DNA from: a virus
Lineage: Duplodnaviria; Heunggongvirae; Uroviricota; Caudoviricetes
Reading direction: 5' to 3' (one strand)
IMG/VR virus record: IMGVR_UViG_2778261167_000009
Length of the DNA stretch: 11,902 nt
Part shown: positions 3,264 to 11,902 of the stretch, one piece after another
How positions within the stretch are numbered: the stretch's first letter is position 1
Layout of the letters: every line of letters begins with the position of its first letter
The notes under the pieces: model-generated
Told to the model about the DNA's origin: nothing
Database searches by the model: none
Seen by the model: only the letters and a program-made list of their open reading frames with translations
Program-made: the position numbers and the translations under genes

Positions 3264-4470
3264 CTTTTTCACCTTTAATTTCCACAGTCTGCTTCCATGC
3301 CTGGCTGAACTCGTCACCACCTTCACGCGGCGGCATACCCTCACGCTCACGGGCTTCGTTCGGATTCATGATCCCGTTCTTAATCCCTTTCTCATACGTG
3401 GCATAACGTTCGGTGGGTGTGGCGCGTAATAAATCGGCTGAATCAAACTCAACCAGATAACGGGTACCAGGTACGGGAGAAGCCACCAGCAAAGCGGCCT
3501 TGATTTGCTGTTCGAAGTTCGCCAGCCATGGGCGCATTGTCATGGTCAGAAACGCGCGGCTTGCCTCGCTGAAATTGCTGTAGGTGCTGTTGCTGTATTC
3601 CTGCAGAAAAATAGGCGATACGTTGAACATGCGGGCGATGTCTTCAATGGAGAAGCGACGGGAGGCCAGCCATTCCGCATCCTGGTTACTCATTCCCAGT
3701 TGCTTGTAATCCATGCCCCCTTCAAGGATTGGCGTTTTTCCGGCATTTTTCGCCCCCTTGTAGCGTTCCAGAGCATCTAATGCCTGTTTACCTTTCACGC
3801 CGTCCAGCCATTCGCCTGACGTGATAATCCCTGCCGCCATCATGCCATCTTTCATAATGCTGGCTCCGTGGCGCTGTTGAGCAAGGCCAAGCCCAAGCGC
3901 CTCACGGCAAATCGTGACAGGGGAGCGCCCCAGAAAGCCATCATCCGAGGCATAGCGGAGATGCAGAACTTCTTCCTGTAAATACGTGCGCACCGTTCCT
4001 GTATAGGGTTCGGTGATGGTATAGCGGTATTTGTGTGCGCCTGTGCGTTCCGGTACAACACACCCCGGCGCATAAGGATGAAGTGATTTTGGCTGCCCGT
4101 CCTGCCCCCACTCAATAACCGCATAGGCGTTACCGTTCAGCAGGCAGTGACGCATCATTGTGCGTTTAAACTGGTAAGGTGTCTGGCACGAATTAGGCTG
4201 CTCATTCAGCAGAATATCTACCGGGTGACTGTCCAGCCATTCCCGCGCCTCCCTGCCCTTGTCATTACGTACCAGATACAGATAACACGGCATCGTGGCC
4301 ACCGCCTCAGCGATGACAGAAACCGCGTTCATCACTGCAGGCAATGATTCAGCCGTCCCGGCAGAAACATATTCTCCGGATCCGGTATTCGGTACGCCGG
4401 ACAGCGCCAGAAAATCATCAATGGACAGGTTACGCTGCTCGCTTTTTTTACGACTAAAAGGCCACCACAT
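3256..4470 (-). CDS. Portal protein, HK97 family
   Basis: About 404 aa from the ATG at 4468-4470 (MWWPFSRKKSEQRNLSIDDFLAL...), with portal-like core motifs (FSIEDIARMFNVSPIFLQEY, RPWLANFEQQ). The start lies 1 nt after the protease stop, suggesting coupling. The upstream extension to 4560 is not protein-like. Confidence 0.9.
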   Translation of the reverse strand: MWWPFSRKKSEQRNLSIDDFLALSGVPNTGSGEYVSAGTAESLPAVMNAVSVIAEAVATMPCYLYLVRNDKGREAREWLDSHPVDILLNEQPNSCQTPYQFKRTMMRHCLLNGNAYAVIEWGQDGQPKSLHPYAPGCVVPERTGAHKYRYTITEPYTGTVRTYLQEEVLHLRYASDDGFLGRSPVTICREALGLGLAQQRHGASIMKDGMMAAGIITSGEWLDGVKGKQALDALERYKGAKNAGKTPILEGGMDYKQLGMSNQDAEWLASRRFSIEDIARMFNVSPIFLQEYSNSTYSNFSEASRAFLTMTMRPWLANFEQQIKAALLVASPVPGTRYLVEFDSADLLRATPTERYATYEKGIKNGIMNPNEAREREGMPPREGGDEFSQAWKQTVEIKGEKDE

Positions 4471-6542: not shown

Positions 6543-7049
6543 ATGAATTTAAGCGCAATGGTATACCCTGATACTTTCATAATTAATGGCGAATCATTCA
6601 GAGGTAAAAGAAACGCAAAAGAAAACAAGGTATTAATTCCATATACAAATGAACCGGAAGTAACTATTGGTCAACACATTATCCAGCGTGTCGGTAAAAA
6701 CGAGATAAATCTAAAAATTATAGATATGAAGTTGCTTCCCAATGGAACCCTCAGACAGGGAACCAATCATCCAAATATGTTGACTCTCTATATTGAAAAT
6801 ATCACGGGAAATGAACATATGACGCCAACTAAAAGTAATACATTTAACATTGGTTCAATTAGTGGTGATCAAGTGCAGATAGGTGAGCATAACCATATGC
6901 TGGTAAACATCAGCATCACTGAACTGGTTGAAAAAGTCGCTAAATCGGGGGATGTACAAGCCAAATCAGTATTAAAGCAGTTACTGGAAAACAGTACCGT
7001 TGCCAGCATTGTTGGGGCTGGCGCAAGTGCCCTAATAGGCTTACTGTAA
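6543..7049 (+). CDS. Hypothetical 168-aa protein, AT-rich cargo/moron gene; unrecognised N-terminal domain and C-terminal hydrophobic glycine-zipper-like tail
   Basis: The only long plus-strand ORF in the core, opposite to all flanking genes and visibly more AT-rich. Good RBS and its own promoter and terminator. Translation ends ...ENSTVASIVGAGASALIGLL. No family recognised. Confidence 0.7.
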   Translation: MNLSAMVYPDTFIINGESFRGKRNAKENKVLIPYTNEPEVTIGQHIIQRVGKNEINLKIIDMKLLPNGTLRQGTNHPNMLTLYIENITGNEHMTPTKSNTFNIGSISGDQVQIGEHNHMLVNISITELVEKVAKSGDVQAKSVLKQLLENSTVASIVGAGASALIGLL

Positions 7050-10434: not shown

Positions 10435-10755
10435 TTATCCCCGATTTGAATCAGTATTCGCTTTCTTTATGGCATTTAATGCATCTGTGGCATTTTCAAT
10501 GGTGCACCGTAACGAAATATCAAAATGTCCAAGCATTGCCAGTAACAAACCGATATTACCCATATCAATGCGCATGGCCTTTTCGTCATATTCCTCATTT
10601 TCTGACGCATGCCACATCAGGCTACCAATTGACGCAACAGCCATTGATATATTGTCAGTAGCCCCATCCGCAGCGGAATAAACCTTTTTAGCAATATCAT
10701 GCTCACAGTTAAAATGCGGATTAATCAGGTACTGGTAATTTGACATATCAGGCAT
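10435..10755 (-). CDS. Hypothetical 106-aa protein
   Basis: Complete ORF with ATG at 10753-10755 and RBS AGGGGG; AT-rich. No family recognised. Confidence 0.6.
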   Translation of the reverse strand: MPDMSNYQYLINPHFNCEHDIAKKVYSAADGATDNISMAVASIGSLMWHASENEEYDEKAMRIDMGNIGLLLAMLGHFDISLRCTIENATDALNAIKKANTDSNRG

Positions 10756-10951
10756 GGCACACCCCCTGACGAATACGGGCGGCGAATACCATCACGCAGC
10801 CAGCCGGGGATTGCTGGCGTGCTTCCTGTTCGCTGGTGGCCACGATGTGAATCACGCGCGGTTGTGCCGTGCTCAGGGCGATAAAACGCCAGATGAATTT
10901 ATTCAGGTTGTGCGAGTCCCGCCCTTGCGGGTGTGTGGTATGATTTAACAT
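10748..10951 (-). CDS. Candidate 67-aa first gene of the leftward operon
   Basis: This is the C-terminal in-frame part of the spurious 306-aa ORF. ATG at 10949-10951 is preceded by GAGGT; stop at 10748-10750 overlaps the next gene start. Translation MLNHTTHPQGRDSHNLNKFIWRFIALSTAQPRVIHIVATSEQEARQQ... is plausible but unrecognised. Confidence 0.35.
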   Translation of the reverse strand: MLNHTTHPQGRDSHNLNKFIWRFIALSTAQPRVIHIVATSEQEARQQSPAGCVMVFAARIRQGVCHA

Positions 10952-11047
10952 AGCTACCTCGATACTTCTGCTATCGTTGGTGGTTAGAAGCCCGGTTAGT
11001 GTTAGCGCACTGCCGGGTTTCGTCGTTTCTGCACCTTGCATCAACAA

Positions 11048-11100
11048 GGTGTTAAACACCAATTTAAGCCTAGGTGTTAAACACGTCAAGTGTTGAACAC
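11048..11100. promoter_or_regulatory. Three palindromic operator-like sites overlapping a putative promoter for the plus-strand small-gene module
   Basis: GGTGTTAAACACC (11048-11060), GGTGTTAAACACG (11073-11085), GTGTTGAACAC (11090-11100). The last overlaps a -35-like TTGAAC (11093-11098), with 17-bp spacer and -10-like CATACT (11116-11121). GGTTAG direct repeats lie upstream (10982, 10994, 11000). Confidence 0.45.
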
Positions 11101-11150
11101 TTATTTTTTTTCCTGCATACTGCATTTGTTTTTTGTAAGGAGTACACAAC

Positions 11151-11330
11151 ATGGCGACAAAAGCAGTAAACGCAAAATCACAAACAGTTGCGGCAAGGGT
11201 TCCGCATGAAGTTATGAACAATGTTGAGGCGGTAAAAATGCCTGGTGAAAGTACAGGGCAGTTTGTAACAGCAGCATTAAAGCGAGAAGTTGAATACCGC
11301 CAGCATCGCAAGGCCAAAGAGCAGGAGTAA
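11151..11330 (+). CDS. Arc/MetJ-like ribbon-helix-helix DNA-binding protein, 59 aa
   Basis: Below the ORF-track size cutoff. Strong RBS AAGGAG (11137-11142) 8 nt before the ATG. Translation MATKAVNAKSQTVAARVPHEVMNNVEAVKMPGESTGQFVTAALKREVEYRQHRKAKEQE has a beta-strand then two helices in the RHH pattern. Confidence 0.6.
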   Translation: MATKAVNAKSQTVAARVPHEVMNNVEAVKMPGESTGQFVTAALKREVEYRQHRKAKEQE

Positions 11331-11387
11331 CCATCACCAGCGCCGTGGTGCGGTGAACTGTGGCGCACAGGGTTACAGGTATCTACG

Positions 11388-11567
11388 ATGACTGACAAAT
11401 CATTAAAGAAATTATCCTCATCCAAGAAAAAACAACGCAAAAATGCGGTAAACGAACATGAACCGGAGAGATTCGCACCATGTGCGTTTATCCTTGAGAA
11501 GTACCTTAAAGAGTATTCTAGGAAAATACGCTCATTGCAGGCATGGCAGCGAATCGAGCCAGACTGA
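11388..11567 (+). CDS. Hypothetical small basic protein, 59 aa
   Basis: Below the ORF-track cutoff. ATG at 11388 with weak SD (AGGT); translation MTDKSLKKLSSSKKKQRKNAVNEHEPERFAPCAFILEKYLKEYSRKIRSLQAWQRIEPD. Lies between the RHH gene and the plus-strand terminator. Confidence 0.4.
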   Translation: MTDKSLKKLSSSKKKQRKNAVNEHEPERFAPCAFILEKYLKEYSRKIRSLQAWQRIEPD

Positions 11568-11631
11568 TAGCATTGCCCACTAGCCGACAACCTGGTATTC
11601 TGGATATGCTCAAGTTTAGTGTTATGCCACT

Positions 11632-11660
11632 GGCGACCGCCCCCGGTCGCCTTTGTTTTA
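11632..11660 (+). terminator. Rho-independent terminator ending the plus-strand small-gene module
   Basis: Stem GGCGACCG, loop CCCC, stem CGGTCGCC (11632-11651), followed by TTTGTTTTA. It sits inside the 306-aa minus-strand ORF, arguing that ORF is not real. Confidence 0.6.
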
Positions 11661-11677
11661 TGTGTCATAGCTCCCCC

Positions 11678-11902
11678 CTAGGCTGCCTTACCTGAATTAA
11701 CGCGGTCACGGCTTTGCACCCAGTCCATAACTTCGGAAAGCAACCAGCCTACAGAACGCCCCCCAAGATTACGGCGAGACGGAAAGCCCCCTTTCTTCTC
11801 CAGTTCGTAGCGTGTAGTACGGCTGACGCCTGTTAACTTACGACATTCATCCTCACGAATTACGCGATCTGTTAGTGATTGAAATTGTGTATTTTGATTC
11901 AT
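11678..11902 (-). CDS. alpA: AlpA-family phage regulatory protein (winged-HTH activator/excisionase-like)
   Basis: 74-aa translation (IREDECRKLTGVSRTTRYELEKKGGFPSRRNLGGRSVGWLLSEVMDWVQSR) matches the AlpA pattern. The ATG is at the window edge, so the RBS and any upstream integrase are not visible. Confidence 0.85.
   Translation of the reverse strand: MNQNTQFQSLTDRVIREDECRKLTGVSRTTRYELEKKGGFPSRRNLGGRSVGWLLSEVMDWVQSRDRVNSGKAA

Follow-up and report, generated by a model that had tools for sequence, protein, structure and literature searches.

How does a Gram-negative phage-inducible chromosomal island (PICI) keep its replication and packaging genes silent while it rests in the chromosome of its host? 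The founding paper on these islands leaves it unclear whether they have a global repressor and describes the contrast with the Gram-positive islands as a mystery (PMC6092414). The question is raised directly by a 199-bp gap (positions 10952–11150) in an 11,902-nucleotide stretch of the virus record IMGVR_UViG_2778261167_000009, here called the window, which is a capsid-forming PICI (cf-PICI), a phage satellite, of E. coli in reverse orientation. On the left of the gap, at 10951 on the minus strand, starts an Icd-like gene, named for its likeness to inhibitors of host cell division, which heads a leftward replication and packaging operon; on the right, at 11151, starts a small plus-strand gene for a 59-aa protein of the YlcI/YnfO family with a fold of ribbon-helix-helix (RHH) type, which we propose to be a repressor. 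An earlier, sequence-only reading of this DNA had described the gap as roughly 200 bp of non-coding sequence; the length stands, but the left 75–80 bp encode a predicted structured RNA. We consider it likely that the gap is a two-layer lock on the leftward operon, in which the RHH protein and an antisense RNA of the SymR type would act together. The statement in the same reading that no master repressor has been described for such islands still holds, both in the words of the founding paper and insofar as we found no paper on this protein.

The right half of the gap carries the core GTGTTNAACAC exactly three times, at 11049, 11074 and 11090; these are three exact cores within 52 bp, where about 0.5 would be expected per 11.9-kb window, and the core is absent from the rest of the window and from the whole island with its 14-kb flanks. 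Three near-identical palindromes had been described here, two of them as the same sequence; the shared core bears this out, while the 13-mer of copy 2 differs from that of copy 1. Relatives of the 59-aa protein are found across Enterobacterales, and the loci encoding them were collected by scanning one genome per species (31 loci), to which the prototype island EcCICFT073 and the island of O157:H7 were added; the sites were compared in 25 related islands from about 12 genera. Nearly every locus has the same scaffold upstream of the RHH gene, namely an invariant TTGA, 17–18 bp and a TATAGT-like −10, followed by an AT-rich stretch and a rightward −10 reading TATACT. An 11–13-bp motif occurs in three copies at fixed positions of about −102, about −77, and about −32 or about −61 from the ATG. 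The third site lies in most relatives on the −10/+1 of the rightward promoter, as against the −35 in the window. Both places on that promoter, the −35 and the −10/+1, are occupied in two islands of the window's site class (L003 and L004), which have four sites in all. The window has lost the −10/+1 site, so that operator number varies within a class.

What ties these sites to the RHH protein is the way in which they change. Within a locus the motif changes in concert, and the promoter hexamers are conserved while the intervening sites differ from island to island. At least nine site classes were distinguished, each tied to a variant of the protein's beta-strand: SQT[VLI]AARV is found with GTGTT[AG]AACAC, SKKLEARV or SRKLEARV with GTGTCAGCCAC, SQSLKSRV or SQALKARV (EcCICFT073) with GTGTGGCCCAC, SQKLQARA with GTGGA[CA]TCCAC, SKRFDVRV with GTGTCGGACAC, SQKTSVRI with GTG[GA][TC]GGACAC, SQKMSARV with CTGGCACCCA and SQKIQARA with CTGGATTCCAG. 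Site distance correlates with beta-strand distance (Mantel r = 0.64, p = 2e-4) and does so when the rest of the protein is taken into account (partial Mantel r = 0.58, p = 2e-4), whereas the site shows no correlation with the rest of the protein given the beta-strand (partial Mantel r = 0.007, p = 0.43); the loci are related, so that these values, like the shuffle statistics of the covariation analysis below, overstate independence. The alignment of relatives has an invariant G32-E33-S34 turn and an invariant R16, and residues 11–15 are hypervariable, with positions 12 and 14 among the most variable and 13, 15 and 17 hydrophobic. Positions 12 and 14 of an RHH ribbon would face DNA, and the comparison predicts that these two residues set the site preference, T,A specifying GTGTTAAACAC and K,E specifying GTGTCAGCCAC.

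The islands are also mosaic around this point. The window and EcCICFT073, which has an equivalent control module with a different site class, are 94% identical in the leftward region, 57% in the operator region and 61% in the RHH gene; for the window and an Edwardsiella island (L002) of the same site class, the corresponding values are 72%, 90% and 91%. Two Xenorhabdus islands (L027 and L010) encode AlpA proteins that are 95.7% identical and have differing sites, each set matching its own RHH allele, and three different site classes accompany nearly identical leftward regions (91–94%). The operators and the RHH gene therefore form one exchangeable cassette, which is independent of AlpA and of the leftward genes, and by this mosaicism the cognate binder can be neither AlpA nor the Icd-like protein nor the primase. 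The covariation with the beta-strand and the joint movement with the RHH gene, both drawn from the comparison of sequences, strongly support the sequence-only reading in taking the three sites (O1–O3, Table 1) for operators, to which the RHH protein is predicted to bind. Their palindromic character, which was stressed in that reading, is true of the core in the window and is otherwise incidental, as most relatives have non-palindromic repeats in the same direction.

The 59-aa protein has a strand-helix-helix fold of about 45 residues, a G-x-S/T turn joining its helices and an N-terminal strand in which hydrophobic and DNA-facing residues alternate, and its predicted structure matches RHH folds. 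The RHH proteins listed for it are TacA1, TacA2, Rv0298, the RHH domain of PutA on its operator, CopA_SO, AmrZ, HicB, SvtR, VapB12, ParD2, omega and NikR. A tblastn search against 50,697 phage genomes returned no match, and so there is no sign that helper phages encode a close, cross-talking homologue. A more distant, YlcI-like branch (...IRFP...NFSAWV...) is represented by a locus in Klebsiella pneumoniae ATCC 13883 (L029) and by ylcI of K-12 (L036, 6252–6446); the Klebsiella member retains the island context and has repeated sites of its own (GGTGCACCCCCAC / GGTGGGGGTACAC). K-12 YlcI adjoins the cos/nohD region of DLP12 and was dropped as a guide, being too distant.

Between them, O1–O3 cover the core of a predicted leftward promoter (P_L) and the −35 of a predicted rightward promoter (P_R), which stand back to back. 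The −35 TTGA of P_L is invariant in 19 aligned loci, and its −10 is TATAGT-like in most relatives. P_R scores below the threshold of the promoter scan (8/12 matches); with its TTGAAC, 17-bp spacer and CATACT, and with the −10 conserved as TATACT in relatives, the earlier placing of the third site over the −35 of the RHH promoter is plausible. With O2 in the spacer of P_L and O1 over its start site, bound protein would keep RNA polymerase off P_L; binding at O3, on the −35 of P_R, would give negative autoregulation. A transcript from P_L would begin with a predicted hairpin, and a dyad with a different sequence is retained at this position (11032–11051) in relatives, judging by eye from alignment A3; the hairpin may serve to stabilise the 5' end or as some other regulatory site. 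At 11048–11060 the O1 palindrome, with the TTGTTGATGC that follows it, was also called by the terminator scan, as a weak, terminator-like hairpin of the minus strand; this call is probably a by-product of the palindrome.

The left half of the gap appears to supply the second layer. In a search of Rfam by E-value the single match of note was to the family SymR (RF01809), on the plus strand at 10952–11024 and over the full length of the model (1–77), with 33.6 bits and E 3.3e-4, and RNAalifold applied to an alignment of 24 loci gives two hairpins. Across these loci 96.5% of the cells are paired and 16 of the 26 pairs have a compensatory change; none of 500 shuffles reaches any of the measures, and slid controls pair at 35–47%. 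The RNA of the window alone folds with a minimum free energy of −37.2 kcal/mol (z −5.5). A covariance model (R1) built from the island loci alone, without symR, matches the annotated symR of K-12 (L033, 3834–3924 on the plus strand, annotated 3836–3912; 35 bits, E 2.8e-6), and also matches EcCICFT073 (53.5 bits) and the O157 island (42.9 bits), both of which are outside the training set. On this comparative evidence, the predicted RNA at 10952–11030 is homologous to K-12 SymR. A putative −10 precedes its predicted start by 7 nt, next to the target's start codon; the geometry at K-12 symR is alike (TAGAAT, 7 nt, then +1 AGUCAU), and all relatives have a TAnnnT element at this position. The RNA is complementary to the 5' untranslated region and the Shine-Dalgarno sequence of the Icd-like mRNA (complement of CCTC, 10957–10960).

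At Rfam gathering thresholds no family was reached anywhere in the window. A C4 or isrK immunity RNA was considered and rejected, with no match to either in 10600–11902, and so was LexA control as in symE, as 10952–11150 contains no LexA box. Three GGTTAG direct repeats had been noted on this side of the gap and taken for possible activator sites of the leftward operon. Only two exact copies exist (10982 and 10994), the third being TGTTAG, and two are fewer than the chance mean of 3.6 in the window. They coincide with the 3' half of hairpin 1 and with part of the 5' stem of hairpin 2; being stem segments of the SymR-like RNA at chance frequency, they were rejected as protein sites.

Table 1. 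Features of the control region and its surroundings, in window coordinates
Feature	Position	Strand	Basis and remarks
Icd-like gene (host cell-division inhibitor-like), 67 aa	10748..10951	-	NCBIfam NF033153 phage_ICD_like, E 4.6e-20; RefSeq annotation of L001
Extended -10 of antisense RNA (TGgTATGAT), predicted	10936..10944	+	Inside first Icd-like codons; predicted start ~10952
SymR-like cis-antisense RNA, ~75-80 nt, two hairpins and U-rich tail	10952..11030	+	Rfam match, covariation; predicted
Predicted 5'-terminal hairpin of leftward mRNA, 7-8 bp (CACCUUG/CAAGGUG)	11032..11051	-	Minus-strand fold; contains half of O1
Operator O1, GGTGTTAAACACC	11048..11060	.	Directly downstream of leftward -10; spans predicted leftward start
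Leftward promoter P_L	11061..11089	-	-35 TTGACG 11089-11084, 17-bp spacer, -10 TAAATT 11066-11061; promoter scan, predicted
Operator O2, GGTGTTAAACACg (in the feature list, GGTGTTAAACACG)	11073..11085	.	Fills P_L spacer, touches P_L -35
Operator O3, AGTGTTGAACACT	11089..11101	.	Overlaps -35 of RHH gene's own promoter; abuts P_L -35
Rightward promoter P_R of RHH gene	11093..11121	+	TTGAAC 11093-11098, 17-bp spacer, CATACT 11116-11121; read from sequence
59-aa YlcI/YnfO-family protein, RHH-type fold, proposed repressor	11151..11330	+	NCBIfam YlcI_YnfO_N, E 2.3e-16
Open reading frame downstream of RHH gene, 59 aa	11388..11567	+	Probably co-transcribed; no family match
Intrinsic terminator of rightward unit (GGCGACCGCCCCCGGTCGCC then TTTGTTTT)	11632..11659	+	Terminator scan and sequence
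alpA	11678..11902	-	Pfam PF05930 Phage_AlpA, E 4.8e-16; known Gram-negative PICI activator (PMC6092414)

How might these parts work together? At the level of transcription, the RHH protein would bind the three 11–13-bp sites; in the resting island, its presence on O1 and O2 would shut P_L, and O3 would limit its own synthesis. At the level of translation, the SymR-type RNA of about 75–80 nt would be transcribed rightward, and constitutively, from the promoter inside the first Icd-like codons. Any leftward mRNA that slipped past the first layer would meet an RNA perfectly complementary to its leader and Shine-Dalgarno sequence, so that either the probably toxic Icd-like protein would go untranslated or the mRNA would be cleaved, in the manner of SymR and symE. 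Induction would start from AlpA. In Gram-negative PICIs alpA is switched on by helper phages, and its product in turn activates alpA transcription; induction requires AlpA, and overexpressing it sets off island excision and replication (PMC6092414; cf-PICI preprints). Once a helper phage has switched on alpA, leftward transcription from alpA would converge on the RHH gene and pass through it in antisense, so that RHH synthesis would fall and transcription would enter the operon; the RHH protein would be diluted, P_L would fire and the mRNA would come to exceed the antisense RNA. We infer the AlpA-driven antisense read-through because alpA is convergent, because the rightward unit ends in a terminator whose U-run is confined to the plus strand, with none on the opposite strand, so that alpA transcripts could pass it toward the leftward operon, and because AlpA of P. 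aeruginosa is an antiterminator (PMC7969949, PMC9371919).

Several other explanations have to be weighed against the two-layer lock. Chance, in an intergenic region rich in A and T, is a negligible candidate for the source of the palindromes and repeats: GGTTAG does occur at chance level, and the 13-mer at up to 3 mismatches is not enriched across the window, but the density of exact-core sites, their arrangement and their concerted change across about 12 genera amount to comparative data that refute a chance origin of the GTGTTNAACAC sites. It is highly improbable that another island protein binds them, as AlpA elements or as iterons of a primase or replication initiator. AlpA is the known regulator of these islands, short repeats near replication genes often act as iterons, and activator sites had been proposed in this region; against this, the 95.7% identical AlpA proteins go with different site classes, the 91–94% identical leftward regions go with three classes, the sites always match the RHH allele, and the published origin of replication lies downstream of pri-rep (PMC6092414). 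On the mosaic evidence both AlpA and the primase were rejected as site binders. We give little more credence to the proposal that the hairpins at 10952–11030 are a leader structure of the leftward mRNA, whether an attenuator or a fold that sequesters the ribosome-binding site, with no antisense RNA gene. The complementary strand forms weaker versions of the same helices, and relatives outside E. coli have their Shine-Dalgarno sequence within the loop region of the complement of hairpin 1. The strand preference speaks the other way, with 105 G-U pairs on the plus strand vs 1 on the minus strand and 96.5% vs 79.7% of cells paired, as do the homology in both search directions to the plus sense of SymR, which is known from experiments, and a −10 placed 7 nt before the start as in K-12 symR.

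A further alternative bears on the first layer. The RHH protein might be a self-contained autoregulator, for example a type II antitoxin paired with the 59-aa open reading frame (ORF) downstream, all three sites then acting on its own promoter and the operon being driven solely by read-through from alpA. We regard this as unlikely. A type II toxin-antitoxin system has a conserved adjacent toxin gene, whereas this ORF is confined to E. coli-type islands and was not found in islands of other genera that have the full site arrangement; Pfam and NCBIfam scans gave it no family, toxin families included, and the 59-aa RHH protein is without a sizeable C-terminal toxin-binding extension. In all loci, moreover, the invariant leftward −35 TTGA, 17–18 bp from its TATAGT-like −10, is bracketed by O1 and O2, an arrangement that would be purposeless if only the rightward promoter were regulated.

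The two-layer lock has points against it as well, to which the relatedness of the compared loci, mentioned above, also belongs. AlpA is necessary for induction and its overexpression is enough, and therefore the RHH protein is not the sole control. The search of the whole island and its flanks found no operator sites near alpA or int, and the protein therefore holds at most the replication and packaging operon; to speak of a 'master repressor', as the sequence-only reading did, overreaches on both counts. P_L and P_R are consensus predictions, with the modest score of P_R given above and a weak −10 (TAAATT) for P_L in the window, and O1–O3 are spaced by 25 and 16 bp, neither of which is a whole number of helical turns. 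The AlphaFold2 monomer has a short helix and no strand at residues 13–16, so that the ribbon itself is not seen; a short helix in place of the strand is common for RHH monomers. No Pfam family was reached at E < 0.01 for the window protein, and a Pfam scan of 35 relatives gave the RHH clan below threshold only (PSK_trans_fac, CB_ParB_C and DUF7557, in a few); a profile search of the PDB returned no significant match for the 59-aa protein, and Foldseek found nothing. For the second layer, the 33.6 bits of the SymR-like RNA are below the Rfam gathering score of 61, and its promoter is proposed by analogy.

An island 99.9% identical to that of the window lies between rcnR and thiM in strain TUM12357 (L001), with the integrase to the right of alpA. 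The order of the whole island, which is alike in EcCICFT073, is int, DUF6387, alpA, the RHH gene on the opposite strand, and then icd-like through primase to terL. The leftward operon consists of the Icd-like gene, a hypothetical gene and genes for DUF4222, a P4-type primase, SSB, capsid, protease, portal, HNH, TerS and TerL, and alpA, convergent with the RHH unit, has the same direction as this operon. Parts of a 941-bp query around the control region are matched in 1522 of 5426 complete E. coli genomes. In EcCICFT073 the equivalent position, past the RHH gene, is taken by a 62-aa homologue of the 59-aa downstream ORF (ERFAPCAF...LKEY...SLQxWQRxEPD). Between the replication and capsid genes, a 168-aa ORF (6543–7049, plus strand) runs against the direction of the operon; its annotation in L001 is hypothetical, and it may be accessory cargo. 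Just past the right end of the window, directly upstream of the alpA start codon, a GC-rich hairpin with a U-run on the alpA strand (L001, 15163–15210; GCCCTCG...CGAGGGTGTTTTT) resembles a terminator before alpA. The int-alpA RNA motif of Rfam has no match upstream of alpA in this island. The motif (RF02996), the only Rfam family to do so in the relatives, exceeds its gathering threshold in four islands of other genera, away from the control region and on the minus strand (L003, 5853–5921; L005, 5893–5961; L007, 5966–6038; L021, 5519–5587).

Neither part of the proposed lock is new in kind: RHH repressors acting on operators are known, and so are SymR-type RNAs. What appears to be undescribed is that the two are combined, that they lie in these satellites and that the cassette has diversified into many specificity classes. 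A later survey of PICI organisation covers Bro-zone proteins and C4/isrK RNAs and neither the YlcI/YnfO protein nor SymR, and a cf-PICI preprint describes the gene downstream of alpA as variable and of unknown function. In the searchable literature we found nothing on YlcI/YnfO/DUF3950, on SymR in satellites, or on an RHH protein or repressor in EcCICFT073. Gram-negative PICIs and cf-PICIs are widespread carriers of virulence and defence genes, and their regulation is known only via AlpA. A candidate repressor can now be named, with operators mapped to the base pair, and its presence in EcCICFT073 makes existing strains usable; the antisense RNA would add an RNA layer to satellite control. The leader/antisense cassette of K-12 symE-symR has relatives at the heads of satellite operons, which bears on the origin of that type I toxin-antitoxin system. 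For engineered PICI 'drones', an off-switch and a set of specificity classes would be useful in practice.

A wider proposal is more speculative, and we would sooner doubt than expect it. Gram-negative PICIs, EcCICFT073 and the cf-PICIs among them, may have their long-missing system of maintenance (immunity) in the YlcI-family RHH protein together with the SymR-like RNA, with a repressor-operator cassette diversified into at least nine specificity classes that are exchanged between islands. Helper phages would then act on the switch indirectly, through AlpA-driven and possibly antiterminated convergent transcription that silences the RHH gene and reads into the operon. If true, the cassette classes would resemble the immunity regions of lambdoid phages, and several islands could share one cell without cross-repression.

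Among the closest known systems is symE-symR of E. coli K-12 (RF01809). SymE is SOS-induced, and SymR is a cis-antisense RNA acting on symE. The island RNA is homologous to SymR in sequence and structure, starts beside the start codon of its target, covers the Shine-Dalgarno sequence and leader, and has the target promoter just past the RNA terminator, with repressor sites on it, so that the two share a two-layer logic of repressor plus antisense RNA. The SymR family is described with symE under a LexA promoter as its target, whereas in the island, where the match stays below the gathering threshold, the target is Icd-like, RHH sites take the place of the LexA boxes, and the target gene heads a mobile element's long operon for replication and packaging.

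Phages offer further parallels. In immI of P1, the C4 antisense RNA controls icd-ant, and the CI RNA of P4 is related to it. As is proposed for the island, an icd-type gene for a cell-division inhibitor, first in an operon of a temperate element, is restrained by a small RNA; C4 and CI, however, arise by processing of the sense transcript and have their target sites upstream, whereas the island RNA is a predicted true cis-antisense RNA. In immI of P22, the RHH repressors Arc and Mnt act at the overlapping divergent promoters Pant and Pmnt. Small RHH proteins over back-to-back promoters, autoregulation and control of the lytic side are common to P22 and the proposed lock, but P22 has two RHH proteins with one operator each and the island one protein with three sites, and no homology between them is detectable. 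C4/isrK hits have been reported in some Gram-negative PICIs (PMC10111431).

By position, the RHH gene recalls the Stl (Rpr) master repressor of Gram-positive islands, the Staphylococcus aureus pathogenicity islands (SaPIs) and PICIs: it lies between the int side and the replication module, is divergent from the replication operon and has allelic variants (PMC6092414). Stl differs in being a larger, helix-turn-helix repressor of the whole island that is inactivated by a helper-phage protein, as against a 59-aa RHH protein in islands whose known trigger acts through AlpA. A joint use of both layers is known from plasmid pMV158, in which the RHH repressor CopG and the antisense RNA II act on copG-repB. 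CopG is encoded in the operon that it represses, whereas the island gene is divergent, and the two systems, one of a plasmid and the other of a satellite, have no sequence relationship; what the proposed lock shares with pMV158 is an RHH repressor and a small antisense RNA that jointly restrain a replication operon at the levels of transcription and translation.

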